Source: Candidatus Woesearchaeota archaeon
Lineage (GTDB): Archaea > Nanobdellota > Nanobdellia > Woesearchaeales > GW2011-AR15
Assembly: GCA_016928835.1 (NCBI GenBank)
Contig: JAFGJW010000014.1
Span: forward strand, 27,751-91,750
Reading direction: 5' to 3'
Length of the DNA stretch: 64,000 nucleotides
Made by a program: the position numbers and the translations under genes. How positions within the stretch are numbered: the first letter of the stretch is position 1; each line of letters starts with the position of its first letter. The notes under the pieces are model-generated. The model searched no databases, was not told the DNA's origin, and saw nothing but the letters and a program-made list of their open reading frames with translations. Of the stretch, positions 2,446-33,060 are shown in pieces.

Positions 2446-2586
2446 AAGAATATTTTTTGGTAAACAGCCCCATTATATTAATTTATCTAATAGAAAGTGC
2501 ATAAAGTCTCTGGTTCTTGTCCCAAAAAAACATATACACTGGATAAAACAAAAAATATTATAAAAGTCAAGCATATTTATTATTGT

Positions 2587-4627: not shown

Positions 4628-4701
4628 CTAATTTTTAAGAAAATAAAATAGTTAAAAAGCTTTTCTATACTTTTCAAAAGAATTTCTGTATGGGGGCACA
4701 A

Positions 4702-5928: not shown

Positions 5929-6021
5929 GCGCCACTATATTTATTATACTTCAAGCTCATTAATAAATCTATTCATAAAACAAGGCAAAAATTTAAAAAG
6001 AGAAAAAAATGCATTAAATTT

Positions 6022-6381
6022 ATGATTGAACTATTATTTATCCTGCTCGGGATACTAGCAGGAGCCATAAGCGGATTAATTGGGATAGGTGGAGGTGTTT
6101 TGATTGTTCCTGCACTTGTTTATCTTTTTGGTTTTACTCAACATAAGGCACAGGGAACAACACTTGCGTTACTAGTTGTCCCAGTTGGTTTTTTGGCTGC
6201 TTTAATATATTACAAAGCAGGCCATGTTGACCTAAGAATAGCAGCACTTATTGCCATTGGCTTTTTTATAGGTTGCCTCTTTGGAGCCAAATTTGCTGTT
6301 TCTCTCCCAGACATTTATCTACAAAGGATATTCGGAGTTGCTTTATTTATTTTGGCGTTAAGGATGATATTCTCAAAATAA
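6022..6381 (+). CDS. half-size TauE/SafE (DUF81/TSUP)-like membrane protein
   Basis: GLIGIGGGVLIVPALVYLFG motif; ~4 TM helices; 119 aa versus ~250 aa for a full TSUP. Confidence 0.5.
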   Translation: MIELLFILLGILAGAISGLIGIGGGVLIVPALVYLFGFTQHKAQGTTLALLVVPVGFLAALIYYKAGHVDLRIAALIAIGFFIGCLFGAKFAVSLPDIYLQRIFGVALFILALRMIFSK

Positions 6382-10192: not shown

Positions 10193-10193
10193 T

Positions 10194-11807
10194 TTATAAT
10201 ATCTCCAACATAGTACGATTTTCAGCTTCTTCTATTCCATACAAACAGGTTTTTAAAAAAAAGTCCAGAGCAGATTTACGTGTAGATTCTGGCAGCTCAT
10301 CATGAAAAAATCCATGATTTTTATTTATATATAGTTCAGTTACAGGTTCACCATGATACCTAAAATTAGAAGCAAAAGGAGATACAGTATCCTGTGGACC
10401 TTCTATTAGATATACTGTAATATCAGGCGTTTCCAATTCTCTAAGACTATATTGCATTCTTTGCTCCTCTGACATATCTCTTAATTGCACTCTAGTTGCA
10501 GATTCTTTCACATCTTGAAAATCAATGACACCCAAATTAGGATTAACTAATAAGCTTTCAATTATTTCTATATGTCCGACATTATTTGGGTCAACAACAA
10601 GTGCACCTGAATAAAATCTATCTAAGTTCATATGCCTATTTCTTGAGATTATTATTGGCCTCTCTGAAGACATATCTTTATTAAAATAGACACTCAAGAG
10701 ACTACAAACTTCATCAGTTGTTCCAGTAGCAGCAACACCCAGAAAGATTCGGGAGTGTAATGCAGATCTCAATATCCTATCATATGTTGCTAGGGGCAGA
10801 TGCTCTTTTATATATTCCAAGTAAGGTAATATTGCCTGCACAAATACTTCCCTTTGTGCTTGTCTGAACCTTTTATCTTTAATAAAGGCATTTCTCCCCT
10901 CAACAAGTTGACATGATAGGGGATAATCAGTAATCATATCTAAAGCAAAACTATCATGAGTAACATACACACCACCAGACAAAGACAATTGGTCACCATA
11001 ATCCTTTTTTGGTAGACCCAAAACTACTTCAATTGTTTCTCTATCAAATGGGATACTATATGTTTGGGGTTGTCTTATTGGAATTGGATAACCAAAGTTT
11101 ATTTGCTTGCCATTACAGCTGATTATACACCTTTCAGGCGGCACATATTGAACATATTCTTCAATCAGTTTTCTACTTGATTTTACTTTACCTAAACCCA
11201 GCTTGTTTTTTATTCTGCCAAAAAAGCCATCGCGAGAACCTAATTGAATATGTATCGTTGTACCCGGCTCCCTGGTTTCATGTTTAGAATATCTTACAGT
11301 GAGTTTTCCATCCTCCATAAAATACACTGCTCGATAGTGAGTTCCATTTTGTGTATCTACAATAACTCTGCCACCTCTTTGCACAACATTCAATATTGAA
11401 TAAAAACCTACACCAAACCTACCAATTTTATCTACCTTTCCTGAGAAAAAGGGTAATGCCAAGTCATATAAAAGAGTCTCAAAGGTCATTCCAGAACCAT
11501 CATCTTTAATTATGATCTCATCTCCTCTATCCACAAATTGAATATTCTTAGAGCCTGCATCTATTGAATTAGCAATTAATTCAATCAGCTCTCTCCCAGA
11601 TCTCGTGAACTGATGAGTAATTAAGTCGTGCAATTTATTTGATACATAATCTTGGTTATAATCAAAATCAGGTATAGTGTAATCTTCTCCCTGGTCTACA
11701 GCTTTTTGTAGAGCCTCAACCGTTTGTGCAAATTTTCCTGAATTTATTGTCGCTAATGCTATGAGTCTTTCTAAAGGCACTACTATACCCTTTTTTGGCT
11801 CATTCAT
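10194..11807 (-). CDS. GHKL ATPase, Hsp90-like (GHKL-A), soluble
   Basis: N-box ELIANSIDA, G1 IKDDGSGMT, G2 IGRFGVGFYS (almost identical to the Hsp90 IGQFGVGFYS signature). Confidence 0.7.
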   Translation of the reverse strand: MNEPKKGIVVPLERLIALATINSGKFAQTVEALQKAVDQGEDYTIPDFDYNQDYVSNKLHDLITHQFTRSGRELIELIANSIDAGSKNIQFVDRGDEIIIKDDGSGMTFETLLYDLALPFFSGKVDKIGRFGVGFYSILNVVQRGGRVIVDTQNGTHYRAVYFMEDGKLTVRYSKHETREPGTTIHIQLGSRDGFFGRIKNKLGLGKVKSSRKLIEEYVQYVPPERCIISCNGKQINFGYPIPIRQPQTYSIPFDRETIEVVLGLPKKDYGDQLSLSGGVYVTHDSFALDMITDYPLSCQLVEGRNAFIKDKRFRQAQREVFVQAILPYLEYIKEHLPLATYDRILRSALHSRIFLGVAATGTTDEVCSLLSVYFNKDMSSERPIIISRNRHMNLDRFYSGALVVDPNNVGHIEIIESLLVNPNLGVIDFQDVKESATRVQLRDMSEEQRMQYSLRELETPDITVYLIEGPQDTVSPFASNFRYHGEPVTELYINKNHGFFHDELPESTRKSALDFFLKTCLYGIEEAENRTMLEIL

Positions 11808-11943
11808 TTTGAAATCCCCTGAGAAATCGATTTACTGCGTATTCAATCAAATGACTTCTATTCCTAAAAAGACCCTCTTCTAATTGTAAATCAATGTCAT
11901 TAATAGTTACATCTTCTATTGATATTGAAAGTTTCTTTTTCAT
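11800..11943 (-). CDS. ribbon-helix-helix (CopG/Arc/MetJ-like) small regulator, 47 aa; not in the ORF track
   Basis: MKKKLSISIEDVTINDIDLQLEEGLFRNRSHLIEYAVNRFLRGFQNE is a typical beta-strand + two-helix RHH. Its TGA stop overlaps the ATG of GHKL-A (ATGAATGA, 8-nt overlap). Confidence 0.55.
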   Translation of the reverse strand: MKKKLSISIEDVTINDIDLQLEEGLFRNRSHLIEYAVNRFLRGFQNE

Positions 11944-11957
11944 ACTACTTAGTAGTA
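11943..11957. promoter_or_regulatory. 7-bp inverted repeat TACTACT-T-AGTAGTA overlapping the RHH start codon; candidate RHH operator. TATATA box and ATACTACT direct repeats follow in the 282-bp divergent intergenic region.
   Basis: Palindrome read directly from the sequence; position is typical of an autoregulated RHH operator. Confidence 0.3.
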
Positions 11958-12089
11958 AAAGATACTACTATATAAATCTTACTATTTTTTATTACTGTAT
12001 AGTAATTAAACCAGAGAGATTTATCTATAAATAGTTAACTCATGTTAATAACAAAACATTTTAAATAACCCTTTTCTTTCTCTGTTCTT

Positions 12090-13610
12090 ATGAAGGGGCT
12101 TATCATCTCAGGCAAGTTCTCTGAATTAATTGTGAGGCAGAAATCTGATCAGGAAATAGAACTGGGAGAGCTATTGATCGCAGAGAACAAGAATTCAAAA
12201 ATATTGCTGCAGTGTTATGACTTAGTCTATGGAAGCCAGATTTCTCAATTAAACCTTGAGCTGGTTTCTGGGATGAAGCTAGAGGAGGAATCTAATCTAG
12301 AATTCATGGATGAGAAGTTAAGGAATTATAACCTAGCTTTGTTAAAAAATTTAATAACAATTACTCCCAATAAGGCACATTCATCAAAATCATTGCCTGG
12401 TTTTTTTTCTCATGTGAGGGAGGTTAAGAAAGATGATTTAAAGTTTATCACCAAACCAGAGAACCCATTGTTCACTGGCAAACTGAGGTCAGGATCAAAG
12501 GAATTGGATGTTGATATCTTTCTACCCGGGGATAAGGTTTTTACCCATCACGTGCTTTTAGGTGCATCCACTGGCAAAGGGAAATCTAATCTAGCTGCAA
12601 CTATGCTCTGGGATTTAATGAACAGAGACTATGCAGGAATTCTTGTTTTAGACCCGCATGATGAATACTTTGGAAGAAACAAGCTTGGCTTAAAAGACCA
12701 CCCAAATAGAAAGAATCTTGTCTATTACAGCCCTGATGCGCCTCATGGTGCCAGAACATTGAGAATCAATATTAAGCAGATAAGACCAGGCCACTTTAAT
12801 GGTGTTATTGACTGGAGCCAGGCACAGGACGAGGCATTAACTGCGTATTACAGGAAGTATAAAGAAGGCTGGATTGAAGCAGTTTTATTAGAAAAAGAAG
12901 TGCATGGTTTTATGGAAGGCACATTAGCTGTATTGAAAAGGAGATTATTGTCATTGCTGGATTTGGATGTAGCTGAGGAGAAGATTTTCTGTAATGGCAT
13001 ATTTGATTTCAATTCAGGCCGAACAACAATAGCAGACATATGCAGTGACCTGGAAAAAGGGAAGATTGTGGTTATAGATACATCAAATTTCTCTGGCAAT
13101 GTGGAAATCCTTATTGGAAGCCTTGTAACAAGTGAAATATTCTACAGGTACAAGAATTACAAATCCAAAGGTGTGCTGGATGATAAACCCACTATTTCCA
13201 TCTTTCTTGAGGAAGCTCCAAGGGTTTTGGGAAAAGAAGTGCTTGAAAAAGGCCCTAATATTTTTTCAACTATTGCCCGTGAAGGCAGAAAATTTAAAGT
13301 TGGTTTGACAGCAATAACACAGCTCCCTTCTCTAATACCCAGAGAGATACTAGCTAACATAAATACCAAGATAATTCTAGGGATAGAGATGAATGCTGAA
13401 AGGCAGGCAATAATAGAATCTGCAGCCCAGGATCTAAGCTCTGATTCAAGGGCAATTGCCAGTTTAGACAAAGGAGAAGCAATAATTACTTCGAATTTCA
13501 CAAGGTTTGCCATTCCGGTCAAGATTCCTTTGTTTAGTGAGTATGTAAAAAAAGATTTGAAAAAAGAAAAGGAAGTGCAGACTGATTTTAGTGGGATTAA
13601 ATTGAGTTAA
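12090..13610 (+). CDS. HerA/FtsK-superfamily ATPase (DUF87 HerA-like)
   Basis: Walker [12 protein letters not shown] followed by [10 protein letters not shown] (the DUF87 'iiDphGEY' motif), Walker B FLEEAPR, C-terminal [17 protein letters not shown]; N-terminal HAS-barrel-like region. Confidence 0.7.
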
Positions 13611-19870: not shown

Positions 19871-22243
19871 TTGAGAATGGATTTCATTACGAGATTAAAA
19901 AACCAAGTATTGATAATGAACGGCGCAATGGGCACCTTTTTCCACGGCAAGTATCCAAGGGATATGTGCTTATATGAACTTAACTTTAAGATGCCTGAGC
20001 TTGTTAACTCTGTGCAAGAGCAATATATCAAGGCAGGAGCTGATTTTATTGAGTGCCTGACCTTTAGTGCAAATAGATACAAACTAAAAGAATTTGGTTT
20101 GGGTAACAAAACAAGAGAGATAAACAGGGCAGCTGTAGACATTGGCAGAAAGCTCGCAAATGAATACAGCAATGTCTTTGTCTTTGCATCAATAGGTCCG
20201 CTAGGGCAGTATATCGAGCCTTTGGGTAAGCTAAGTTCCAAGCAAGCTTATGAATTATATAAGGAACAAGTGGAAGCATGCAGAGAAGCTGACTTCATTA
20301 TGTTTGAGACATTTTCAGATACAAAAGATATGAAAGCTGCAATTTTAGCTGCAAAAGACACTATGAGAAAACCAATTGTCATGGAGGTTACCTTTGATAA
20401 TAATTTAAGAACATCTACTGGCACTGATCCGTTAACTGCATTAAATATCTGCCAGAGTCTCGGAGTCAGTGTTTTTGGGATAAATTGCGGGTTAAGACCA
20501 TATGAAATGGAACCAATTGTTGAGATTCTTGTTAAAAAATCAAAGATTCCTTTAATAGTCCAGCCCAATGGAGGGATCCCTAAACTGGTTAACGGTAAAA
20601 CTGTTTTTGAATCGAACCCAAAAGAATTTGCCAAGTATATGAAGAAGTTTGCTGATCTCGGCATTAATATTGTTGGGGCATGCTGCGGGACAACGCCCGA
20701 GCATGTTAATGAAATAAAGAGGTTAGTGGCAGATATGAAGCCCGTTGAAAGAAACATAAAAAATTATTTTATGTTATCTTCAAGAACAACAACAGTTGAG
20801 TTTGATAATGCAACTGTTCCAGTCATTATTGGAGAACGGATTAATCCAACAAACAGGGAAGATTTGCAGGCAGAACTTAAAAGCGATAAATTTTCTATTC
20901 TAATAAATGATGCAGTTCAGCAATCAAAGATAGCGGATTGTATTGATGTTAATGTTGGCATGCCTTTAATTGATGAAATAAAAATTCTAAAAAAAGCTGT
21001 TCTCAGAATCCAGGAAAAGGTAAGCACACCTTTAGTCATTGATACTTCTAATATCAAAGCACTTGAAGGAGCACTGATGGAATCAAACGGCAAAGTACTG
21101 GTAAATTCTGTAACCGGTGAAGACAGGTCATTAAATATAATTTTGCCACTGGCAAAAAGATATGGTGCTGCTGTGATAGGGCTCTGTATTGATGAAAACG
21201 GAATCCCAGAAAAGGCTCATGATAAAGTAAGAATAGGAAAAAAGATTATTGAGAAGTGCCTTGACTATGGAATCCTGGAGAAGGACATAATTATTGATTG
21301 TGTAACAATGAGTGTTGCCACAAACCAGCAATCTGCAGTTAACACGCTAAATGCTATAGAAGAATTTTCAAGGCTTGGTTATAACACAGTTCTTGGCATC
21401 AGTAATGTCTCTCATGGACTGCCAAACAGGGCTTTATTGAATTCCACCTTTTTTATGCTGGCTGTACAAAAAGGGCTTTCAGCTGCAATACTTAACCCTT
21501 TTGATGCAAGCACTAAAAATAGTCTTTATGCACTTAGAGCATTGATGGGCAAAGACAGCAACTGTTTAAGATATATCAATAGCCAGAAAAATGTTAAGAC
21601 AGAAAAAAGAGAAGGTAAAAAAAAGTCAATTGATGAGCAATTGCACAATGCTGTTATAAATGGAGATAACGAAGTTATTAGTGATTTGGTGGCAGAAGCT
21701 CTACAACACACCAAACCATTGAAGATAAATAATATTCTTGTGTCAGCACTTAAAGAAGTTGGGAAAGAGTATAAATGTGAGAACATTTTTTTGCCGCAGG
21801 TTCTGGCTTCTGCAGAAGTCGTGAAAAAGGCTTTTTCTATACTTAAAGAGCATCTAAATCACCAAGATAGCAAACCAAAAGGGACCATAATGATTGCCAC
21901 AGTGAAAAATGATGTTCATGACATTGGCAAGAATATTGTGATTGCTTTGCTTGAAACACAGGGGTATAAAATAATTGATCTTGGTACAAACGTAGATGAG
22001 GCAACTATTGTCAAAGAAGCAAAAGCTCATAATGCTAAGTTGATTGCTTTGTCTGCTCTTATGACCACAACAATGACAGAGATGGAAAAGGTTATTGGAT
22101 TGTTGAAAAAGGAAAATCTCAAGATACCGGTCATTATTGGCGGTGCTGTAGTTAATCAAGAATATGCAGATGAAATAGGGGCAGATTATGCTAAAGATGC
22201 CCTGGAAGCAATAGAGAAAGTGCAGAATGTTTTGAGAGGATAA
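19871..22243 (+). CDS. metH: cobalamin-dependent methionine synthase core (Hcy-binding + pterin-binding + B12-binding; no AdoMet reactivation domain). The track start is probably TTG; the first ATG is at 19877.
   Basis: Hcy domain with GINCG...GACCGTTPEH zinc ligands; pterin-binding ERINPT; B12 motif DVHDIGKNIV and cap region. Confidence 0.8.
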   Translation: MRMDFITRLKNQVLIMNGAMGTFFHGKYPRDMCLYELNFKMPELVNSVQEQYIKAGADFIECLTFSANRYKLKEFGLGNKTREINRAAVDIGRKLANEYSNVFVFASIGPLGQYIEPLGKLSSKQAYELYKEQVEACREADFIMFETFSDTKDMKAAILAAKDTMRKPIVMEVTFDNNLRTSTGTDPLTALNICQSLGVSVFGINCGLRPYEMEPIVEILVKKSKIPLIVQPNGGIPKLVNGKTVFESNPKEFAKYMKKFADLGINIVGACCGTTPEHVNEIKRLVADMKPVERNIKNYFMLSSRTTTVEFDNATVPVIIGERINPTNREDLQAELKSDKFSILINDAVQQSKIADCIDVNVGMPLIDEIKILKKAVLRIQEKVSTPLVIDTSNIKALEGALMESNGKVLVNSVTGEDRSLNIILPLAKRYGAAVIGLCIDENGIPEKAHDKVRIGKKIIEKCLDYGILEKDIIIDCVTMSVATNQQSAVNTLNAIEEFSRLGYNTVLGISNVSHGLPNRALLNSTFFMLAVQKGLSAAILNPFDASTKNSLYALRALMGKDSNCLRYINSQKNVKTEKREGKKKSIDEQLHNAVINGDNEVISDLVAEALQHTKPLKINNILVSALKEVGKEYKCENIFLPQVLASAEVVKKAFSILKEHLNHQDSKPKGTIMIATVKNDVHDIGKNIVIALLETQGYKIIDLGTNVDEATIVKEAKAHNAKLIALSALMTTTMTEMEKVIGLLKKENLKIPVIIGGAVVNQEYADEIGADYAKDALEAIEKVQNVLRG

Positions 22244-22295
22244 ATTTACAAAAAATCAATTAATTTTTATCTAACCAAAATTTTATTTCATATAA

Positions 22296-22904
22296 ATGAG
22301 CAAAGATATAGACCTATCAAGATACAAAAAATATTTTACTATCAGATATTTTCTTATAATCAGTATTTGCGTCTTAAGCTTTTTTGTTTTCACAAAGTTA
22401 AGGAGATTGTTCTTTATTCTAATTTTGGTTAGTTTAAATTGTGGCTTTGGATATTTAAAGCGCTTGTTATTCATAAATCTTAAACTTGATAGTATTATCA
22501 CAAAATCAATTAATCTTAGACATATAGCAAATGCAGTAGAATTAATCACCTTTACTACGGTACTGAGCAGCTATGCATTTGATTATCTGGCTGGAATGGT
22601 GGTTGGAGGACTGTCAATCATAGGCACATATATTTTTGAAAGGAGAGTATCAAGGTACAGTCTGGCAACTGTTCCTTTATATATACTTTTGGGTTACCTG
22701 GCTTTCCTTTTGAAACCATGTCTCATTGATATTAGGGCACTAGGCATCATTCTTTCACTGGTATATAATATTATCATTAATTCTATTCTATTTACCTTTT
22801 TCAGGGCTAAGCTAGTTAAAATGGGCAGTTTCAGTGTGGTAAATATATTATTGAATGTTTATCTATTTACAAACATAGCGCCGCTCCTTATAAAGATAAT
22901 ATGA
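22296..22904 (+). CDS. multi-pass membrane protein, hypothetical
   Basis: ORF with ~6 hydrophobic helices. Confidence 0.35.
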   Translation: MSKDIDLSRYKKYFTIRYFLIISICVLSFFVFTKLRRLFFILILVSLNCGFGYLKRLLFINLKLDSIITKSINLRHIANAVELITFTTVLSSYAFDYLAGMVVGGLSIIGTYIFERRVSRYSLATVPLYILLGYLAFLLKPCLIDIRALGIILSLVYNIIINSILFTFFRAKLVKMGSFSVVNILLNVYLFTNIAPLLIKII

Positions 22905-22908
22905 GAAT

Positions 22909-24489
22909 TTACATATAGTGTCTTTGACTCTCAAAACCAAAACAATGCCTACAAATCTGATGGCTCTCTCTTCCAGTAATTGAAAGTAACTCTTCTGGAT
23001 GTAGGAACATTAAGGAAGTAACTCCAAGATCATCTCGCATCCAATCAACAAGCTTTCTGTACCTCTCTGAACTAGGATCTGCATATTCAAGGATAACCTC
23101 CCTTGGGACTTGATAAATTAAGTTTATGTCTGGTAAATGATCATCTTCTAGAGCTATTCCTTCAAGTTGGGCTATTCCTCTCCAGGCTAGAAGTTCCCTC
23201 CTATTTTTAATAGAGCGATTAAAAGGACAGTCATCAATGAGAATCGGGCTTCCAACTCTTATATGAACTTCCTGCGGCCCGTATCTTAATATCTTATCTT
23301 CGAGAAGTTGCCGAAGCTGTGTGCCTCTAACAATTGAGTCCTCGAATAAAATAACCTTTCTCCCCTTGATATACTCTGGAAGGGGAATTATTTTCATAGC
23401 TCCCACAAGATCTCTTCTTTCTTGCGTAGGAGGTTGATAACTTCTACCCCATCCGGCTGTATATTTGACTACCAAACGATATATGTCAGGAATTTCTTGT
23501 AGGATTAGAGTATGATCACGTTGCTCTTTGAAGGCTCTTTTCAACAAATGGATTTTACCATTTAAATAACCATAAGCATATGCAATACCAGAATCAGGCA
23601 CCCCGCAGACTGCATCTACATTTGCCCTGTCTCTTGATGCAAGTATCTCTCCTGCTCTGTACCTGTATTCTTCTGCTGTAAAACCAAAAGAGCCAATCGC
23701 CGCCGGAAAATCAGTGTAAATATCCATGAAGGGACATGGTTCTGATTTGCCTGGATCCGCTAACTTCCCAATGTTTTCTTCTAAATTAGTTGCTGTAAAA
23801 TGTATTATTTCTCCTGGAGCCAGGATGCGAAAATAGTTGTAACCAAGATTATTGAAAGGTGTAGTGCTGGTGGCAATACACCTTCCTTGTTTATTCCTTG
23901 CAAGATGCAGCGGACTATTCCCGTATTCATCTGCTGCAGCCCATACACTTGACCCTTCAGAACCATTTACAATCATCACTAGAGTAATTGCTCCTTTTAT
24001 CTTGCTCCTCATATATTCAATACCCTGCTCAATTGCAGATTTCTGGCAGATAAGTTGGTAGACAATATCTGTTTGATTAGGGGTATCTACTCCTTGAGTT
24101 CCGATGGTATCATCACTCACTTGAGTTTGGACAGGATTTCCTCTCTTTAATAGTTCAATTGCTAATTCCTCAAGATTATTTATCTTACCGGCGGTTGCAA
24201 TTGCCACATCCCCCCATATTGAAAAATATGTTAGAGGTTGTGGTTCGCCATCACTAATTACTCCAAGTGCGGTGTGGATTAGAGAGTCTGATCGTAATTC
24301 AATAAGTTTCGCTCTTAATGCTGCTTTAAACTGCGATGAAGAAATTGATCGGATGCTTTTTGTTACTGTCCCATCTCTTACTACTGCAATTCCACCATAT
24401 CTGGTACCCAAGTGGGATAGGTAGTCTGTTCCATAATATCCAGGTAAAAGACAATCTTCTAATGATGTAATAGCAAATATCCCACTCAT
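22909..24489 (-). CDS. purF: amidophosphoribosyltransferase (PurF-like), with Ser instead of the catalytic Cys at position 2
   Basis: Class-II Ntn amidotransferase fold; PRTase motif ILFEDSIVRGTQL; C-terminal Cys (CRHCFGF); N-terminus MSGIFAI instead of MCGI(V/F)G. Confidence 0.75.
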   Translation of the reverse strand: MSGIFAITSLEDCLLPGYYGTDYLSHLGTRYGGIAVVRDGTVTKSIRSISSSQFKAALRAKLIELRSDSLIHTALGVISDGEPQPLTYFSIWGDVAIATAGKINNLEELAIELLKRGNPVQTQVSDDTIGTQGVDTPNQTDIVYQLICQKSAIEQGIEYMRSKIKGAITLVMIVNGSEGSSVWAAADEYGNSPLHLARNKQGRCIATSTTPFNNLGYNYFRILAPGEIIHFTATNLEENIGKLADPGKSEPCPFMDIYTDFPAAIGSFGFTAEEYRYRAGEILASRDRANVDAVCGVPDSGIAYAYGYLNGKIHLLKRAFKEQRDHTLILQEIPDIYRLVVKYTAGWGRSYQPPTQERRDLVGAMKIIPLPEYIKGRKVILFEDSIVRGTQLRQLLEDKILRYGPQEVHIRVGSPILIDDCPFNRSIKNRRELLAWRGIAQLEGIALEDDHLPDINLIYQVPREVILEYADPSSERYRKLVDWMRDDLGVTSLMFLHPEELLSITGRESHQICRHCFGFESQRHYM

Positions 24490-24656
24490 AGCAACCCCTA
24501 ATTCAATATCCAGAATTTTGATTAATAAAGTTATATATTCTTAAGTATACAATTGACCCTACTTTAAAATACTAACAAAGGAAAAATATTTATACTTCAA
24601 GTGTAAAAGGTTATCTAAATGGGGGAGCTTTTTTAACACATTATAAGGTTATCTAA

Positions 24657-27600
24657 ATGGGAAATCTGATTACACCCGAGTTTAGGAAGGGATTCTTCTA
24701 TCTTCTTCCACCCGAAATTACGGGGAAAGTAGTCTCTAGTATACAAGTCGGACCTTTTCACGAAGTGGGCTTAGCAGCTGAACTCAATAAATTTTTCGGC
24801 TTGTCAATTGAAGATTTGTGGAGAATTAATCAATATATACTAGTTCATTCTCAAGGGATACAAGGATTAGAGCAACTTGTCCAAGGCAAACCATTTGTTG
24901 ATCCTGTCATTCAGAGAGCCTCACTCAATAGTCCACTAATAACAGAACTGGGCATTGATTACGACCATGTTCTACATAGCATGCTAAGGCCCGGTACAAG
25001 TGATGCACAGGGCAATATTGCTTTACAGCAAGCTTTGCTTGCCCTTGGGCAACCATTAACAGATGGTGACCAGGGATTTTTTGCTAGACAATATTTTCTT
25101 AAAGGCAAGTTAACTCTTGAGGAAGTAGAAGCAGTATCTGCTTTTCTGGCAAATCCTGAATTAATGTTAAGATATAACTTAAGCAGGGCAGATTATCAGC
25201 AGGGATTTCAGGTTCAAGTTCCGATTGTAACCCTTAAACCAGAAACTAAGGTTGAAAGATTTGATGTTGCTAATATGTCTGATCAGGAGTTGTTAGAACT
25301 TAATGCACAAAGAAAGCTTGCCGCATCGCTCGAAGAGCTGCATCAATTTAGGGACATGTACAGAGATAAAAAATTCTTAGAAAAAAGAGGAGACTATGGT
25401 CTAGATCATCATGCAACAGATATTGAAATTGAAACCTGGTTTGGTTTAAGATCAGAACACTGTTTCCATAAAGAGTTCAATGCATGCATAACTTTAGCGG
25501 ATCTTGCTAATGATCCTATATTTGCAAAGGCATTAGCAGAAGGATTTCTCAGCACAGATGCAGATGGCAACTATGTATTAGGAGATGGATTGTTTAAAAT
25601 ATTTATAGAAGCACCTGCAAGAGCAATCCATGCAAGACTAGTAGAGAGAGGAAGGAACTGGATTGCCAGCATGTTTGATGACAATTCTGGTGTTGTTTTT
25701 TATGATCAGGATTATATGTTCTGCATAAAATTTGAAACCCATAACTCGCCTTCAAATAAAGAACCTATCCAAGGTGCAAAAACAGGTATAGATGGAGTTA
25801 ATAGAGACATCTTCGGAACAATGCTTGGCACATTTGATGCTATTGCGAATTTCTTTTTTTATTGCACGGGCGATCCAAGTTATGCAGGATGGTTGCCTAG
25901 AGGTGTCAAACACCCGTACGTTATTCTGAAAGGCATAACACAGGGAGTTAGAGAAGGAGGAAATGAAAGTCAGATACCAACTTTGGGAGGAGGTATTATA
26001 ACTGACCCGAGGTATATGGCAAAATGTTTAGTATACTGTGGCACAGTCGGCTGGTCTCCTGTCTGCTCAGATGAAGGAAGGAGTTATCTTGTTAAGAATC
26101 CACAAGTGGATGACATTGTTCTTGTTGCCGGCCAACCAGTTGGAATTGATGGGGTTCATGGAGCCACAGAAAGCTCTTTAAGTGCGGGAGCACACATTAG
26201 CCTAGGCCACGTGCAGGCTGACTTTTCATTTATACAGGCAAAACTAAAACAATACTTACTTGAAGTTGCGAGAGCTCGCTTGCTGAGCTCTGTTACAGAT
26301 TTTGGTGCAATGGGTCTTGGTTCTGCTGCAATTGAAACTGCAAGAGCAACTAATGGCTTGGAGTTAGACTTAGCATTGCACCCAGTGAAATACCAAGGCA
26401 TACAACCTTGGCAGGTCATTGCTTCTGAAACCCAGGATAGGATGCTCCTTGTTGCAAGACCAGATAACCTCAGTCAGCTTCTAGAGAAAGCTGGAGTCCA
26501 TGATGTTGAAGTCGCACAATTGGGAAGACTCACAGACACTGGTTATGTACATTTAACATATAATGGGAAATCTGTTGCATTGATAGATATTGACAGATTG
26601 TTTGATAAAGAGCCAAGAAAAAGAATGTATGCCACATGGACACAACGAGCAGTCCAAGAAGAGATAAGTATACGGGGCTGCTATTCATTGGAAGAGTCTC
26701 TCTGTATGGTAATGCAAAGGCCAGATGTTGCTTCGAAGGAGTGGTTCTTCAGGCAGAAGGACTCTGGCGTTAAAGGCGGCACAATACAAGGCCCGTTGAT
26801 AGGGTTGGAACAGGCAGTAGAAGCAGATGCAACCATACAAAAGCCGTTAGAAACAGAAGGAAGGGATTATGGTGCAATTGCCTATGCATTGGGGATTGCT
26901 CCCAAATTATGCGATATTGATCCTTATTTTGCAGCTCAGCGTTCATTCATTGATATGGTCGGAAAGATTATTGCTCTAGGTGGTGCTTTGCCTGACATGC
27001 AGACTCCTCAGTGGGATGCATGGGCTGTTTGTGGGAATTACTGCCAGCCAAACTCAGATGCAAATACAACATTGGCAAGTGAAAGCGGAGAACACAATTT
27101 AGCTGCATTAATTAGAGAAGGAATTGCAGTAAGGGAATGTGTTGAAAAATTTGGTATACCTGTTATTTCGGGCAAAGACAGTATGAAATGTTCATGCAGA
27201 TATGAAGTTGATGAAAGTTTTCAACTGGAGGTTGTACCACCTGACCTTAGAAAACATATTACACTTATCAGGAGAGGGGATAAGCGATTTATTGAAATCC
27301 ATAATCCTCCAACATATCTTGCTTCAGCAGCAGTAAAAATTGAAGATTATAGAAAATGTGTAAATACTGCGTTCAAACAGGCAGGTGATCTAATATACAT
27401 AGTCGGAACAACAGGGAATCACTTGGGGGCTTCGCAATATTTGCAGGCCATTGGTTATAGAGAACAAGGTACACCATTACTAGGAGGCATATGTCCGCAA
27501 GCAGACCTTGACGAGTTTGTTGAAGTAGCTCATGCTGTTCATGCTGTCATTGATCAAGAACTTGTGGCATCATGCAGCTACATACATAACGGAGGACTTG

Positions 27601-27929
27601 CAGTTGCTGTGGCCAAGGCTGCTATGGCAGGCCAACTGGGAGCAAGCATCAACCTAGGGTCCTTGTCCTCTGAAATACTTTCTATTGATGAACGACTCCT
27701 CTATTCTGAGACTCCTGGAAGGTTCATTATTACAATAGCCCCGCAGGATAAAGAGAGCTTTGAGAAACTTCTCGGACAAGTGCCATATTATCAAATTGGA
27801 ACAGTTGTTACTCAAGATATTCATATAACAAGAGTAAATGGGTCTAAAGAATCTCTTGCACTCCAAAAAATAAAATCAGCTTACCAAGGTCCATTAAGTT
27901 TCAGCTTGCAGGAAGTGAAAGATGGTTAA
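24657..27929 (+). CDS. purL: FGAM synthase, large-type PurL (N-terminal PurS-like region + linker + synthetase) lacking the glutaminase domain
   Basis: ETHNSPSNKEPIQGAKTGIDGVNRDI catalytic motif at ~aa 357; duplicated AIRS-like halves; 1090 aa. Confidence 0.85.
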   Translation: MGNLITPEFRKGFFYLLPPEITGKVVSSIQVGPFHEVGLAAELNKFFGLSIEDLWRINQYILVHSQGIQGLEQLVQGKPFVDPVIQRASLNSPLITELGIDYDHVLHSMLRPGTSDAQGNIALQQALLALGQPLTDGDQGFFARQYFLKGKLTLEEVEAVSAFLANPELMLRYNLSRADYQQGFQVQVPIVTLKPETKVERFDVANMSDQELLELNAQRKLAASLEELHQFRDMYRDKKFLEKRGDYGLDHHATDIEIETWFGLRSEHCFHKEFNACITLADLANDPIFAKALAEGFLSTDADGNYVLGDGLFKIFIEAPARAIHARLVERGRNWIASMFDDNSGVVFYDQDYMFCIKFETHNSPSNKEPIQGAKTGIDGVNRDIFGTMLGTFDAIANFFFYCTGDPSYAGWLPRGVKHPYVILKGITQGVREGGNESQIPTLGGGIITDPRYMAKCLVYCGTVGWSPVCSDEGRSYLVKNPQVDDIVLVAGQPVGIDGVHGATESSLSAGAHISLGHVQADFSFIQAKLKQYLLEVARARLLSSVTDFGAMGLGSAAIETARATNGLELDLALHPVKYQGIQPWQVIASETQDRMLLVARPDNLSQLLEKAGVHDVEVAQLGRLTDTGYVHLTYNGKSVALIDIDRLFDKEPRKRMYATWTQRAVQEEISIRGCYSLEESLCMVMQRPDVASKEWFFRQKDSGVKGGTIQGPLIGLEQAVEADATIQKPLETEGRDYGAIAYALGIAPKLCDIDPYFAAQRSFIDMVGKIIALGGALPDMQTPQWDAWAVCGNYCQPNSDANTTLASESGEHNLAALIREGIAVRECVEKFGIPVISGKDSMKCSCRYEVDESFQLEVVPPDLRKHITLIRRGDKRFIEIHNPPTYLASAAVKIEDYRKCVNTAFKQAGDLIYIVGTTGNHLGASQYLQAIGYREQGTPLLGGICPQADLDEFVEVAHAVHAVIDQELVASCSYIHNGGLAVAVAKAAMAGQLGASINLGSLSSEILSIDERLLYSETPGRFIITIAPQDKESFEKLLGQVPYYQIGTVVTQDIHITRVNGSKESLALQKIKSAYQGPLSFSLQEVKDG

Positions 27930-28785
27930 GGTATATGTTGTTTATGGAGAGGGTATAGGTTGCCATGAAGAAGCAGCTCATGCTTATAGATTGGCAGGTG
28001 CTGGTATTGTTGAACTTATTCATATGAGGGAATTATTAGCGGGAAAAGATATATCTGACGGACAAATCCTTAATCTATCTGGTGGTTTTTTGCATGGAGA
28101 TATTTTAGGAGCAGGCATGTGCGCTGCAAATGAGATTGAACACGCAGTAGTTGGAGATAATGGGGAAAGATTGAAGGAATTGCTCTTAAGATTTGCACAA
28201 AAAGGAGTAATATATGGCCAGTGCAACGGATTCCAGGTTCTTGTACGGACAGGTTTATTGCCAGGTATTGACAGAGATTATTCGAGACAGACAGCAACAC
28301 TTGCACCTAATGATTGCGGCAGTTATTTTGTTTCACAAGTAATGCACCTTGTGGAGCAGAAAAAGAATCATTTTGCCTTTGATAGTATAGATTTTTTATA
28401 TTTGCCCTGCAGACATGGCGAAGGAAAAGTTGTATTTTATAGTCCGCACGGATCCATATCGGCAGAGGATGCAGAACAAAACCGAGCCAGAGTGAATGCA
28501 GAACATGTTCTATTGAGATATGTTCATCCTGAAACAAGGGAACAGACACAACAATTTCCTTACAACCCAAATGGTTCAATCGACGCGATTGCGGGTCTTG
28601 TTGATCCAACAGGACATATCTTTGGTCATATGGCACATCCTGAGGCAATTGTTCATCCATCGAGAGACCCCTGGTGGTTCCATATGAAAGATGAGCTAAG
28701 AAGACAAGGTTATTCTCTTAGGGACATTGTAGAGGAAGGGATCGCTCTCAGTATCTTTAGGAATGTTGTTGAATATGTGAGGTGA
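27922..28785 (+). CDS. purQ: FGAM synthase glutaminase subunit (PurQ-like class I GATase), separate gene overlapping purL by 8 nt
   Basis: GQCNGFQ catalytic Cys motif, HMAHPE His. Confidence 0.8.
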   Translation: MVKVYVVYGEGIGCHEEAAHAYRLAGAGIVELIHMRELLAGKDISDGQILNLSGGFLHGDILGAGMCAANEIEHAVVGDNGERLKELLLRFAQKGVIYGQCNGFQVLVRTGLLPGIDRDYSRQTATLAPNDCGSYFVSQVMHLVEQKKNHFAFDSIDFLYLPCRHGEGKVVFYSPHGSISAEDAEQNRARVNAEHVLLRYVHPETREQTQQFPYNPNGSIDAIAGLVDPTGHIFGHMAHPEAIVHPSRDPWWFHMKDELRRQGYSLRDIVEEGIALSIFRNVVEYVR

Positions 28786-28789
28786 GAAG

Positions 28790-29812
28790 ATGGGAATAAC
28801 TTATGCAAGTGCAGGAGTCAATGTTCAAACTGGAGAAAAAGTTGCCGGAGCATTAGACCAAGTAGTTAGGAAAACCTGGACCCATGATGTTGTGCCGGGT
28901 GTTTCCGGTTTCAAAGCAATGGTAGATAGGGGCAGCTATTATTTAATTGCTGGGATGGATGGAGTTGGTACAAAAGTACTTATAGCTGTGATGGCTAATA
29001 GTCTAACTACAGTTGGACAAGACCTTGTGGCAATGTGTGCTAATGATGTCTTAAGAGTAGGCGCAAAACCAATAATGTTTTTGGATTACATAGCCACTGG
29101 AATACTCTCACCAGAACAGCATTTACAGATTGTTGACGGAGTTGCTGAAGGCTGCAGAGTTGCAGGAGTTCCTCTAATAGGAGGAGAAACTGCTGAGATG
29201 CCTGGAATGTACAAAGAAGGCCATTTTGATTTAGTAGGGACTTGTGTGGGCATGGTTGAGAAGCATGGATTAATCGACGGAAGCCAAATAAGACCTGGCG
29301 CTGTGCTTGTTGGCATTGCATCTTCTGGTTTGCATAGCAATGGTTATTCACTGGTAAGACATGTGATTTTTAATAAACTTATGCATGGAATTGATGATTA
29401 TATTGGGGAAGTAGGTTGCACACTAGGTGAAGAATTATTAAGACCTACATTAATCTATTGTCAACCTGTTTTTGATTTATTGGCGGAATATCCGTGTTCA
29501 ATCCAGGGCCTAGCTCATATTACTGGCGGAGGTATGCCAAATAAACTGCCAAAAGCTCTTCCTGAAGGACTGGGTGCTGAGATTGTGTGGGGTAGCTGGC
29601 CGGTGCATCCAATATTTGGTTATATTGCCAAACATGGACCTGTTGAGCTAGATGAGATGAGAAGAACTTTCAATATGGGCATCGGCATGGTGGCGGTTGT
29701 TAATGATGCCAACATAGTACCTGATTTAATTGCCCGGTTAAGAGAGGGACATAATCTCCTAGCATATAATATCGGCAGAATAGTCGAAGGAGAGGGAGTA
29801 GAATATGTATAA
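28790..29812 (+). CDS. purM: phosphoribosylformylglycinamidine cyclo-ligase (AIR synthetase)
   Basis: N-terminal ITYASAGVNVQTGEK, PurM N/C domains. Confidence 0.9.
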   Translation: MGITYASAGVNVQTGEKVAGALDQVVRKTWTHDVVPGVSGFKAMVDRGSYYLIAGMDGVGTKVLIAVMANSLTTVGQDLVAMCANDVLRVGAKPIMFLDYIATGILSPEQHLQIVDGVAEGCRVAGVPLIGGETAEMPGMYKEGHFDLVGTCVGMVEKHGLIDGSQIRPGAVLVGIASSGLHSNGYSLVRHVIFNKLMHGIDDYIGEVGCTLGEELLRPTLIYCQPVFDLLAEYPCSIQGLAHITGGGMPNKLPKALPEGLGAEIVWGSWPVHPIFGYIAKHGPVELDEMRRTFNMGIGMVAVVNDANIVPDLIARLREGHNLLAYNIGRIVEGEGVEYV

Positions 29813-29916
29813 TCCATAAGGTAATCAAAATATTAGAAGAACAAAAATATGAAATCAAAATAGTTGGAAAATACTGTATGATAAGGAAAGGATAATTGAC
29901 TTTATGAGGTGTTGAA

Positions 29917-31365
29917 ATGGTCCAAACAAAACCAAAACCAATATTTCCAAAAGAATATGTTATCGACCCAAATACTCTTGCAGCACAGAGATATGGTACT
30001 CTAGAGATGGTGGAAATCTGGGGAGCAGAAGCTACGATGGATTACAGTTTACAAGTGCAAGGTCAGGCAGCAGTAACCTTATCTGAACTCTACCCAGACC
30101 TAGTTCCCCCGGATCATGCATCAGAGATAGCTGGAAAAGCGTCTATTCGCTACGTCTCACCTGATAGAATTCGAGAACTTGAGGCAAGAACCGGACATGA
30201 TGTTATTGCAATAAACACAGCTCTGGAAGAGCAGGTTAGTCCTGAAGCAGGTGCTCACATCAATAAAGCTAAAACTAGCGCTGACACAACACAGCCTGCA
30301 AGGGCTTTGCAGTTAAAAAGGTCACTAGTGGTTATTGCTGATTCAGTTGAAAATCTCAGGGATATTTTGCTTGAGGTAGCAATGGAAGGGATGGCTATTC
30401 CTCATATGGACCAATCTCATTTGATAGATGCTTTGCCAACATTTGCAGGAAGACCTCTTGTGCATTATGCAGAAATGCTGCAATCAGATTTGAGATGTTT
30501 AAAATATGTCCATGACAACTCAATAATAGGTAAATGGGCAGATGCAACAGGCAATCATCATTCCGCAACTCTTCTAGGGATAGATGGAATCCTTCTACAG
30601 CAGGAGTACTGCAAAGCTTTGGGAATAGGGTACATGGATGCGCCTGCACAACTCCCCGGCTTGGAATTTGAAGCGGATATTGCGTTTGCAATGGCAAGAA
30701 TAGCAGAAACAATGAATAATATTGCCAGGTACCTTGCTATGGGCAAAGGCACTGACACCAATGTTTTTAGTGACACTAACCCAAGAAGGAGAAAAGGTTC
30801 TTCAGGAATGCCGCACAAAGATATGGTCGGAGGGAATCCAACTGCTGAGGAACAAGTTATGTCTCTGAGAAATTATCTTCATGGTCTGGTCGCCACTGCA
30901 CTTGATAATTGCCAGTTCCCATATTGCAGAGATCTGTCAGCATCATCTAATGCAAGAATTAATTTTGAGGACGGATTTAAGTATTTGGACCATTGCATTC
31001 GAAGACTTGCCAGCGCCGTCTATTGGCTCGGAATAAATGAAGATAGATCCAGAGAAAGGGTTGAAAGAACGTTTGGTGTTGTTACATCGCAGGCAGTGAT
31101 GACTTATCTCACAGACCAAAGGTTTGTAGCAAATCCTATGGTAAGAAGTGAAGCGCATAATCTTACAGCAAGACTGGCAACAGAAGCATATGAACAGAGA
31201 AGACCTTATATTGAGGTTTTATTAGAATGTGAGGAAGTTACCTCAAGAATTGATGAACAAACCTTAAGGAAAATAACAGATCCTTCACAGTATGTAGGTG
31301 AAAGTCAAAGAATAATTCAGACTGTTTTTAATAAATATTATCAAGTAAAAACTCTAACAGGTTAG
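29917..31365 (+). CDS. purB: adenylosuccinate-lyase-like (fumarate lyase superfamily), divergent
   Basis: GSSGMPHKDMVGGNP resembles the GSSxMPxKxN signature; N-terminal RYGT.EM..IW; pur-cluster context. Confidence 0.55.
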   Translation: MVQTKPKPIFPKEYVIDPNTLAAQRYGTLEMVEIWGAEATMDYSLQVQGQAAVTLSELYPDLVPPDHASEIAGKASIRYVSPDRIRELEARTGHDVIAINTALEEQVSPEAGAHINKAKTSADTTQPARALQLKRSLVVIADSVENLRDILLEVAMEGMAIPHMDQSHLIDALPTFAGRPLVHYAEMLQSDLRCLKYVHDNSIIGKWADATGNHHSATLLGIDGILLQQEYCKALGIGYMDAPAQLPGLEFEADIAFAMARIAETMNNIARYLAMGKGTDTNVFSDTNPRRRKGSSGMPHKDMVGGNPTAEEQVMSLRNYLHGLVATALDNCQFPYCRDLSASSNARINFEDGFKYLDHCIRRLASAVYWLGINEDRSRERVERTFGVVTSQAVMTYLTDQRFVANPMVRSEAHNLTARLATEAYEQRRPYIEVLLECEEVTSRIDEQTLRKITDPSQYVGESQRIIQTVFNKYYQVKTLTG

Positions 31366-31448
31366 ACAATATAAAGGTAAATATAAATATCTAAGAAATA
31401 TTAACAAATCACTAAATATTTAAAAGAAAAACATTATTTCTTATTCTA

Positions 31449-32057
31449 ATGATAGTAACAAAGAAAAAGAGTTTTGAAGAGGTATTAGAATTAATTAACG
31501 AGTATAACAAGATAATTCTTATTGGCTGCGGTGATTGTGCCACATTATGCAAGACAGGCGGAGAAGAGGAAGTATTGGAACTAAAAAAACAATTGGAGGA
31601 CAAAGGTAAATCTGTTGTATACACTTCTGTTATTGACACTGCCTGCGATCAAAGACTTGTGAAATTAGAAATAAAAAAATTTCCAAAAGAGTATGATTGC
31701 ATTCTCAGCCTGAGTTGCGGCTCTGGTGCACAGGCAATTTCCTCTTTAATAGGAAAACCTATTTTTCCTGCAACTGATACATTATATGCTGGTGTTACAA
31801 AGAGGATTGGAGATTTTAAAAAAATGTGTTTATTATGTGGCAGATGCATTATCGGAGAATATGCTGGCATCTGCCCGATAACAATGTGCTCCAAGTCATT
31901 ACTCAACGGCCCGTGCGGAGGCTCAGACAACGGCAAGTGTGAAACAGATCCAGACAAGGATTGTGCATGGCAGTTGATTTTTGACAGATTGAAAGAACAA
32001 AAAAAGCTGCATATACTTGACAGCTATAAAGAACCTAAAGAATGGAACATAAAATGA
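31449..32057 (+). CDS. MetV-like zinc/FeS Cys-rich protein (MTHFR C-terminal-domain-like small subunit)
   Basis: Cys-rich segments CGDCATLC, LSCGSGAQA, CLLCGRC...CPITMC...NGPCGG..GKCE...DCAW; overlaps metF start. Confidence 0.55.
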   Translation: MIVTKKKSFEEVLELINEYNKIILIGCGDCATLCKTGGEEEVLELKKQLEDKGKSVVYTSVIDTACDQRLVKLEIKKFPKEYDCILSLSCGSGAQAISSLIGKPIFPATDTLYAGVTKRIGDFKKMCLLCGRCIIGEYAGICPITMCSKSLLNGPCGGSDNGKCETDPDKDCAWQLIFDRLKEQKKLHILDSYKEPKEWNIK

Positions 32058-32926
32058 ATTTTGCCACCAAATTGTCAAATAATAAATTCACAGTTTGTGC
32101 AGAAGTAAATCCACCTCATGGAACAAATACCTTAGAAATAATTAATGACCTCAAGAAAATCAAAGATAAGGTAGATGCATTCAATGTTACAGATAACTCT
32201 CTTTCCAGAATGACAATGTCACCGCTTGCGTTTTCAAAAATCTTGCTAGATAATGGATTAGAGCCGATTATGCATATTACATGCAGGGATAAAAATAGAC
32301 TGGCTATGCAGTCAGAGCTATTGGGTGCCTATGCACTTGGGATAAGAAACCTACTGGCGCTTACAGGAGATGCTATCTCGGTTGGCAACTTTCCTGATGC
32401 GAAGGCTGTATTTGATATTGATTCTGTCCAGTTGGTAGATTTGATTTCAAAATTGAATAAGAGTTTTGATTTAAACAACAAAGGGTTGTCTTCTAGAACT
32501 GATTTTCTTATTGGAGCAGCTGTAAATCCGAACACAACTTTTGTGGATGGCCAAATACTTAAAATGAAAAAAAAGAGAGAACATGGGGCTTCTTTTTTTC
32601 AGACCCAGCCGATCTTTGATGTTGATAAATATAAAAAGTTTATTAATAAAATAAAAAAGATCAAACAACTCCAAAATGTAAAAATTATTTGCGGAATTAT
32701 TATTTTAAAGTCTGTGAAGCATGCCCATTTCTTGAACAAGAAAGCGCCGGGAATAAAGATACCGGAGCGCATAGTACAGGATCTCGCCAATGCCAAGTTC
32801 CCTGAAAAAAGAGCAATAGAGATAGCTTCTAACATTATTAATGAAGTGAAACCAATTAGCCAAGGCATACATTTTGCCAATATAGATGACTACTCTGTTC
32901 TTGCGCAATTTCTTAATAAACTATAA
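32042..32926 (+). CDS. metF: 5,10-methylenetetrahydrofolate reductase
   Basis: FSVEVNPP-like FTVCAEVNPPHG, HITCRD, LALTGD motifs. Confidence 0.75.
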   Translation: MEHKMNFATKLSNNKFTVCAEVNPPHGTNTLEIINDLKKIKDKVDAFNVTDNSLSRMTMSPLAFSKILLDNGLEPIMHITCRDKNRLAMQSELLGAYALGIRNLLALTGDAISVGNFPDAKAVFDIDSVQLVDLISKLNKSFDLNNKGLSSRTDFLIGAAVNPNTTFVDGQILKMKKKREHGASFFQTQPIFDVDKYKKFINKIKKIKQLQNVKIICGIIILKSVKHAHFLNKKAPGIKIPERIVQDLANAKFPEKRAIEIASNIINEVKPISQGIHFANIDDYSVLAQFLNKL

Positions 32927-33060
32927 ATATTCTTATTGGAATAATTATTAAAGTATTTTATGAACTTGATTAGAAACATATAATAAAAATTAGAAAAATT
33001 TATATACTAATGATAACATTAAAAATTGCACATATAATTAACATAAAAGAGGTAACAAAA

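Follow-up and report, generated by a model that had tools for sequence, protein, structure and literature searches.

A Cys-less PurF paralogue in a Woesearchaeote purine gene cluster and the widespread family to which it belongs

PurF, the amidophosphoribosyltransferase (EC 2.4.2.14), is the enzyme of the step that commits a cell to making purines de novo, a step under feedback control; its Cys1-based glutaminase mechanism is textbook material and the enzyme is a current drug target. A 64,000-nt stretch of DNA from a Candidatus Woesearchaeota archaeon (GenBank assembly GCA_016928835.1, contig JAFGJW010000014.1; hereafter, the window is this whole stretch) contains an open reading frame (ORF) at 22909–24489 whose product resembles PurF and has Ser at the position of that Cys. 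Two questions are raised by this locus: (i) is the absence of Cys1 real and general and (ii) what might a PurF without its glutaminase nucleophile do beside a set of purine genes. The first can be answered plainly. The ORF encodes a genuine PurF paralogue gene, and none of its relatives that we inspected has the Cys. The ORF lies on the minus strand, which an earlier note on this DNA, made from the sequence alone, had not stated. The gene and its two main parts are as follows:

22909..24489, minus strand: Cys-less PurF paralogue, 526 amino acids (aa) plus stop (ORF; NCBI JW930_05955, 'hypothetical protein')
24484..24486, minus strand: codon AGT for Ser2, at the position of the canonical nucleophile Cys1 (from alignments)
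23770..24489, minus strand: N-terminal nucleophile (Ntn)-type domain, class II amidotransferase-like, residues 1–240 (Pfam GATase_7, E 9.6e-07)
22912..23769, minus strand: phosphoribosyltransferase (PRTase) domain and C-terminal segment, residues 241–526 (from alignment and fold match)

The 5' end of the ORF reads ATG (24487–24489) AGT (24484–24486) GGG ATA TTT GCT ATT, which gives the MSGIFAI start that had been picked out in the earlier note, and a purine-rich AGGGG is located ~7 nt 5' of the ATG. Ser2 occupies the position of the catalytic Cys1: Gly3 of the query pairs with Gly2 of mature B. subtilis PurF in the HMMER alignment, and the same correspondence is found in a MAFFT alignment with 10 canonical PurFs. 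The earlier note had allowed for an error of annotation or sequence, and for an upstream in-frame start that would give MCG. No such start is present. A TAA stands in frame 18 codons upstream of the ATG, and the 17 codons between them, EYITLLIKILDIELGVA, include no ATG, GTG, TTG or Cys codon, so neither an MCG start nor a propeptide followed by Cys is possible and an upstream source of the Cys is ruled out. NCBI has an identical protein (JW930_05955, Candidatus Woesearchaeota archaeon), and so has an independent Logan assembly; the genes for RLI/ABCE1 and a family-B DNA polymerase near the paralogue confirm an archaeal host. Because Cys is absent in every relative examined, its absence is a family trait and not the product of chance or error; this pattern and the independent assembly rule out a sequencing or assembly error.

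Among 5.8 billion proteins searched there are thousands of relatives. The best 120 show 36–51% identity over their full length, and position 2 is Cys in none of them: MSG opens 108 of the sequences, MTG three, MGG two and VSG one, and the other six have miscalled upstream starts before an internal M-S-G. When one genome per GTDB species was scanned, at least 600 matching stretches were found, 599 of them encoding a relative, so that the family has at least 599 host species, most of them anaerobes, among both bacteria and archaea. The bacterial hosts include Omnitrophota, Planctomycetota, Desulfobacterales, Lentisphaerae and Clostridia, together with Bacteroidales (Alistipes, Muribaculaceae and Paramuribaculum intestinale DSM 100749); the archaeal hosts include Thermoplasmatota, Methanosarcinales, Altiarchaeota and Hermodarchaeota. 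A search with a Muribaculaceae member as the query returned only close Muribaculaceae relatives.

The residue that stands in place of Cys1 is not uniform. We aligned 199 family members with 10 canonical PurFs, nine of which are encoded right beside family members; the Cys1 position is Ser in 164 of the family members, Gly in 31, Thr in four and Cys in none. We also searched the N-domain of the window protein against 1.84 billion representatives clustered at 50% identity. At E ≤ 1e-10 there were 227 matches, and among the best 149 of these the position is Gly in 84, Ser in 34, Thr and Ala in three each, and Cys in none. Altogether, Cys is found at the nucleophile position in 0 of ~350 members inspected. 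The earlier description of a Ser replacing the Cys holds as far as the loss of Cys is concerned and fails for the Ser itself: the check for Ser conservation among orthologues that the note had proposed shows a position that varies among Gly, Ser, Thr and Ala, with Gly commonest in the 50%-identity representatives, and a glutamine site that is remodelled as a whole. What the family has at the nucleophile position is a small residue, not Ser as such.

The placement of the start is strict. In 142 of 153 full-length database proteins the sequence begins exactly at M-[S/G/T/A]-G, with no propeptide, and in all nine canonical neighbours there are residues ahead of the Cys. Gly, Ser, Thr and Ala all permit excision of the initiator Met, given the specificity of methionine aminopeptidase. 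From the exact starts and the shared compatibility of these four residues with Met removal, we infer that a free α-amine at residue 1 is under selection and that the side chain is dispensable.

In a neighbour-joining tree, the family is monophyletic relative to the canonical PurFs, to which its members are 26–31% identical. Mean identity is 0.59 in the main family, 0.46 among canonical PurFs and 0.31 between both. The window protein groups with P0002, from another Woesearchaeote (50% identity), and with P0003; these three constitute a divergent sister subclade that has 39% identity to the main family and carries four insertions. One of the insertions, residues 125–133, is the only low-confidence stretch of the AlphaFold2 (AF2) model of the window protein, and all family-invariant residues are kept in that protein.

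The rest of the glutamine site has changed along with Cys1. Across the 199-member alignment (positions in E. coli PurF numbering), R26 is replaced by L or M, Q28 by T, H71 by V, Y74 by D and T76 by D or E; R73 is S in 197 of the 199; N101 is represented by A, V, N or S; and D127 is variable. H25, G27, Q86, P87 and G102 are retained. The 10 canonical PurFs aligned with these members all retain every catalytic glutamine-site residue. R73 corresponds to S79 of the window protein, Y74 to D80 and N101 to A100, and the D127 equivalent is non-acidic, leaving the Gly102 equivalent (G101) as the only one retained among Arg73, Asp127 and Asn101/Gly102. The prediction that glutamine hydrolysis of the canonical kind has been lost is strongly supported by this family-wide replacement. 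The N-domain itself does not appear to be degenerating, since its mean pairwise identity is 0.55 in the family versus 0.51 in the canonical set, and it contains family-specific invariant residues at D22, Y23, H26, S79, N105 and N138.

In the PRTase half, the motifs (EDSIVRGTQ at 383–391) and the Cys residues (252, 421, 513 and 516) are present; the earlier note had called the PRTase motifs and C-terminal Cys residues intact:

23443..23466, minus strand: PRTase flexible loop, K342 to R349 (E. coli K326 and R332; K and R in 199 of 199 family members)
23317..23343, minus strand: loop binding 5-phosphoribosyl pyrophosphate (PRPP), E383-D-S-I-V-R-G-T-Q391 (E. coli D366–T374; from alignment)
23734..23736, minus strand: Cys252, first predicted [4Fe-4S] ligand (Cys in 198 of 199 family members and 10 of 10 canonical PurFs)
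23227..23229, minus strand: Cys421, second predicted [4Fe-4S] ligand (Cys in 199 of 199 family members and 9 of 10 canonical PurFs)
22942..22953, minus strand: Cys513-x-x-Cys516, third and fourth predicted [4Fe-4S] ligands (invariant; aligns with the B. subtilis CxxC)

The equivalents of K326, R332, D367, S368, R371, G372 and T373 are invariant in 199 of 199 family members, that of D366 is E or D, and the VPDSG motif is kept in the window protein, as in B. subtilis-type PurF. The Cys421 equivalent of E. coli PurF is Asn, and that enzyme is not known to carry a [4Fe-4S] cluster. The two-domain PurF fold is present in the AF2 model (predicted local distance difference test score 90.1; predicted template modelling score 0.90). 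Its best fold match in the PDB is B. subtilis PurF 1ao0 (E 7e-33; template modelling score 0.83 normalised to the target); the top Foldseek matches are 1ao0, 6lbp and 1gph (E 1e-31 to 7e-33), and the matches as a whole are the PurFs of B. subtilis, Arabidopsis and E. coli (E 7e-33 to ~2e-27). All PDB matches are Cys-type PurFs, and the PDB holds no structure from the family. The window protein scores 109.2 bits with the purF model TIGR01134, for which the cutoff is 350, and a main-family member from Omnitrophota (locus L036) scores 207.6 bits.

The paralogue is divergent from a purL-purQ-purM-purB cluster in the window:

24490..24656: intergenic region between the divergent paralogue and purL, with a 20-nt direct repeat at 24604–24623 and 24642–24661
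24657..27929, plus strand: PurL, medium type, 1090 aa (TIGR01736, 322.5 bits, below the cutoff of 525.75)
27922..28785, plus strand: PurQ glutaminase, motifs QCNGFQ and HPE intact (107–123 bits versus cutoffs of 178–298)
28790..29812, plus strand: PurM (TIGR00878, 366.4 bits, above the cutoff)
29917..31365, plus strand: PurB-like adenylosuccinate lyase (TIGR00928, 225 bits, below the cutoff of 326)

PurL, PurQ and the PurB-like protein fall short of their NCBIfam equivalog cutoffs and PurM passes. The purine pathway steps seen in the window are 1, 4, 5 and 8 only; neither a canonical purF nor further pur genes are present in the 64 kb of the window or in ~10 kb beyond its start, and there is no Rfam match (riboswitch or other known RNA) in 22000–33000.

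Two further observations concern this cluster. The copies of the direct repeat, TA[A/T]AAGGTTATCTAAATGGG, start 38 nt apart; the purL start ATG (24657) lies in the second, and an ATG in the first opens a five-codon ORF, MGELF*. Possible roles for the repeat are as a duplicate of the ribosome-binding and start region, as a leader peptide or, within the divergent promoter, as a site to which a regulator binds. In addition, the pur block and a gene for a 202-aa membrane protein (22296–31365 together) are found between metH (19871–22243) and metV(DUF5981)-metF (31449–32926), genes that are often adjacent or fused, and the G+C content is 0.40–0.43 over 26–32 kb versus 0.32–0.37 in the flanks. This location and the raised G+C content suggest that the pur block was inserted and possibly acquired horizontally.

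We sampled the context of relatives at 80 genome loci. Apart from purine genes (purM at 8 loci, large PurL at 7, purE at 5 and purD at 4), no neighbour recurs, and purL, purQ, purM, purB, purD or purE is near the paralogue in ~15 of the 80. At the Omnitrophota locus L036 the order is purB, purL, a LOG-family gene, purQ, the paralogue and purM, with purD, purE, rpiB and glyA further on, and canonical purF is absent within 17.7 kb; the place of the paralogue between purQ and purM follows the gene order of the B. subtilis pur operon. No purine cluster surrounds the genes for the closest homologues, P0002 and P0003, and their loci offer no functional clue. No canonical purF was seen within 5–64 kb at L036, at L027, in the window or at the P0002 and P0003 loci.

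For the second question, the reading that we favour, and hold tentatively, is that the paralogue is a glutamine-independent synthase of 5-phosphoribosylamine (PRA) that uses ammonia. PRA would still be made from PRPP for purine biosynthesis, with the nitrogen coming from free ammonia or ammonium. The old glutamine pocket, having turned more acidic (Asp80 and Glu82) and partly hydrophobic (Leu27 and Ala100), could together with the free α-amine of residue 1, exposed by Met removal, form a site of ammonium entry and deprotonation that feeds the interdomain channel. Synthesis of PRA with nitrogen from a source other than glutamine is suggested by the competent-looking PRTase site in a purine-operon protein. 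The named hosts come from groups generally regarded as anaerobes of ammonia-rich habitats (gut Bacteroidales and Clostridia, Omnitrophota, Desulfobacterales, methanogens and DPANN are examples), which favours ammonia as that source. Ammonia is also plausible because the C1S and C1A mutants of E. coli PurF lose glutamine-dependent activity and keep ammonia-dependent activity, according to the passage of PMC3261824 in which the work is cited (Mei & Zalkin 1989). The same activity, that of an ammonia-dependent PRPP aminotransferase, was proposed in 2011, without a test, for the Cys-less PurF' of Crenarchaeota (Brown et al., PMC3261824), and we count this proposal as support.

Several points weigh against an ammonia-using PRA synthase. 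First, the N-domain is no less conserved than that of the canonical enzymes (0.55 versus 0.51) and has acquired invariant residues of its own, which suggests that it may be more than a passive entrance for ammonia. Second, positions that are invariant in 10 of 10 canonical PurFs are changed: E255 to L, F259 to T or Y, I335 to T or M, T374 to Q, G406 to N, D408 to S and, as noted above, Y74 to D. We take Y74 and I335 to be ammonia-channel residues; since the changes involve the channel and acceptor side, the acceptor site, or the path leading to it, may differ from that of PurF. Third, a canonical Cys-type PurF is encoded within 10 kb of the paralogue at 9 of the 80 loci, and its gene directly adjoins the paralogue at three of them (L006, L012 and L062). 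At L012, from Omnitrophota, the stop of the paralogue (407–1801) overlaps the start of canonical purF (1798–3225) by 4 nt, an arrangement consistent with translational coupling of both paralogues. A canonical PurF is close by in both of the Woesearchaeota main-family loci that were looked up. At one of these (L084) the paralogue is divergent from purL-purQ, which are followed by a PurF-PurD fusion, folD, purN and a purC-purE fusion; at the other (L085) its neighbours are a canonical-type PurF of 510 aa and two purP genes. An operon with two isozymes would be unusual, and a two-subunit arrangement fits at least as well.

The L084 locus (Woesearchaeote GCA_019322815.1) also has fusions worth recording in their own right. 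The canonical PurF, which begins MCGI, is fused to PurD in a protein of 891 aa (3455–6130, minus strand), a configuration that would pass the unstable phosphoribosylamine straight to the next enzyme, and PurC is fused to PurE at 1–1461.

A two-subunit arrangement is the substance of the strongest competing explanation, in which the paralogue is non-catalytic, or binds only nucleotide or PRPP, and is a partner of canonical PurF; in hetero-oligomers of the two, it would control the glutamine-dependent enzyme or make it more stable, in the way that HisZ supports the short HisG. The neighbouring, adjoining and overlapping canonical purF genes described above, including those at both Woesearchaeota loci, are what such a partnership would lead one to expect, as is the high conservation of the family across phyla (0.59 versus 0.46 for canonical PurFs), which would follow if several surfaces were engaged in interactions. 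Canonical PurF is a tetramer with nucleotide sites at its subunit interfaces, a further feature in keeping with a partner role. On the other side, the PRPP-binding and flexible-loop residues are all invariant, which is not typical of pseudoenzymes, and the five loci without a canonical purF in view, the window among them, provide no visible partner. We consider a partner subunit somewhat unlikely. As far as the sequences go, the two possibilities raised in the earlier note, an ammonia-dependent PRA synthase and a regulatory paralogue, are both still leading readings; the observation made in that note is confirmed and its interpretation is partly supported.

A bolder proposal, rather unlikely in our estimate, is that the glutaminase domain has been rebuilt into a new site, composed of the α-amine together with D22, Y23, H26, S79 and N138, that captures ammonium, draws on an unknown donor or mediates PurF/PurF' assembly. 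If this were true, many anaerobes, the dominant gut Bacteroidales and Clostridia among them, would have a second and unrecognised way to carry out the committed purine step.

It is also conceivable that the protein has acquired a different function, either because the Ntn pocket binds or releases nitrogen from a donor other than glutamine or because the PRTase domain uses an acceptor other than ammonia. The pocket, with its Gly or Ser α-amine and new invariant residues (D22, Y23, H26, S79 and N138), belongs to an N-domain under constraint, the apparently selected free N-terminus of the 142 exact starts fits a working site, and the canonical-invariant residues near the acceptor site and channel have been changed systematically. 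Purine biosynthesis is nevertheless the sole conserved genomic context, and the neighbouring genes offer no candidate donor or acceptor; a new function of this kind is decidedly unlikely.

Ser and Thr serve as N-terminal nucleophiles in other Ntn hydrolases, and both occur at this position in the family, so Ser2 might be an alternative nucleophile and the enzyme still a glutamine amidotransferase. This is highly improbable. Gly is the commonest residue among the 50%-identity representatives and Ala also occurs, the glutamine-binding Arg73 and Asp127 and the oxyanion-hole Asn101 are absent, and E. coli PurF C1S is without glutamine-dependent activity in the account cited in PMC3261824. As a general substitute nucleophile, Ser is ruled out by the Gly and Ala members and the lost glutamine-binding residues. 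Finally, an artefact (a sequencing error from TGT to AGT, for which one T-to-A change suffices, a miscalled start, or a decaying pseudogene, with the 'hypothetical' PGAP annotation as its only other encouragement) is for practical purposes refuted and essentially excluded by the family-wide absence of Cys with its many correlated substitutions, by the upstream stop and the independent assembly, and by an intact 526-aa ORF with a confident AF2 model and every family-invariant residue in place.

The distinction among these readings matters beyond this locus. Annotation pipelines give most family members the plain label 'amidophosphoribosyltransferase'. For this reason the nitrogen source or the gene may be wrongly assigned, or a false redundancy assumed, when metabolism is reconstructed for gut Bacteroidales, Clostridia, Omnitrophota, methanogens and DPANN archaea. 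If the paralogue is an ammonia-dependent isozyme, it shows anaerobes bypassing glutamine at the PurF step; a partner subunit would instead point to a new regulation of purine synthesis. For the DPANN lineage at hand, with only part of the pathway visible, the paralogue bears on the capacity to make purines at all.

Other features stand out in the window and just beyond it. About 5–8 kb beyond the window start (L087:6313–8931), an eRF1 gene carries an intein with a LAGLIDADG endonuclease domain and has an 872-aa product. A giant ORF occupies 56642–63691, with 2349 aa in the window, and continues beyond it (L088:1–10004); in its database record the full product has 4469 aa and a Laminin_G_3 domain, and the protein encoded after it weakly matches a WxL-interacting-protein host-binding domain. 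These two are probably cell-surface or host-attachment proteins. At 8096–13610, two adjacent GHKL-type ATPase proteins (HATPase_c_3; 698 and 537 aa) lie by a divergent HerA-like DUF87 ATPase, an arrangement that resembles defence or DNA-processing modules. At 1270–5928 there are two genes resembling mannoside phosphorylases of glycoside hydrolase family 130, one of them fused to a winged-helix domain, and two for glycosyltransferases of family 4 (GT4).

How does the family compare with known systems? It shares with B. subtilis-type PurF (1ao0 and 1gph; TIGR01134) the combination of Ntn and type I PRTase folds, the PRPP loop, the flexible-loop Lys and Arg, VPDSG, the four Cys ligands and an association with purine operons. 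It differs in lacking Cys1 and the propeptide, in the replacement of Arg26, Gln28, His71, Arg73, Tyr74, Thr76, Asn101 and Asp127, in scoring below the TIGR01134 cutoff, and in forming a separate clade whose members often coexist with a canonical PurF. Among AsnB homologues, beta-lactam synthetase has a vestigial Ntn domain that has lost its nucleophile and an active synthetase domain; the loss of the nucleophile is common to both cases, but the synthase domain is of another family. Unlike the Ser- and Thr-type Ntn hydrolases, the family has no conserved hydroxyl at residue 1. The E. coli C1S and C1A proteins resemble it in having a small residue for Cys1; these are laboratory point mutants with an otherwise intact glutamine site, whereas in the family the remodelling extends to the entire site, and the new form is conserved.

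The closest precedents are archaeal. In Mlab_0150 of Methanocorpusculum labreanum the Cys is replaced by Ser (Brown et al. 2011, PMC3261824), and a second cluster without the Cys, PurF', occurs in Crenarchaeota; its members have Ala or Val there and are encoded close to purF and further genes of the purine pathway (PMC3261824). Like Mlab_0150 and PurF', the window paralogue is PurF-like and has no N-terminal Cys. The purine genes purL, purQ, purM and purB are next to it; a canonical purF, which is near PurF' and near some relatives of the window protein, is not found in the 64-kb window or in ~10 kb beyond its start. Crenarchaeal PurF', compared here by its description only, has Ala or Val where our family has Gly, Ser, Thr or Ala, and the 2011 set was confined to archaea, whereas many bacterial phyla are represented here. 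A full-text literature search returned no study of a Cys-less PurF family and no follow-up beyond the 2011 bioinformatic note, and the searched passages of the Fibro-purF riboswitch paper contain no mention of a Cys-less PurF. The concept of a Cys-less PurF paralogue is thus already known, in archaea since 2011. What is new here is the breadth of the family, which extends to many bacterial phyla and to gut taxa, together with its residue-level description, its strict N-terminus and the divergent Woesearchaeota subclade to which the window protein belongs.

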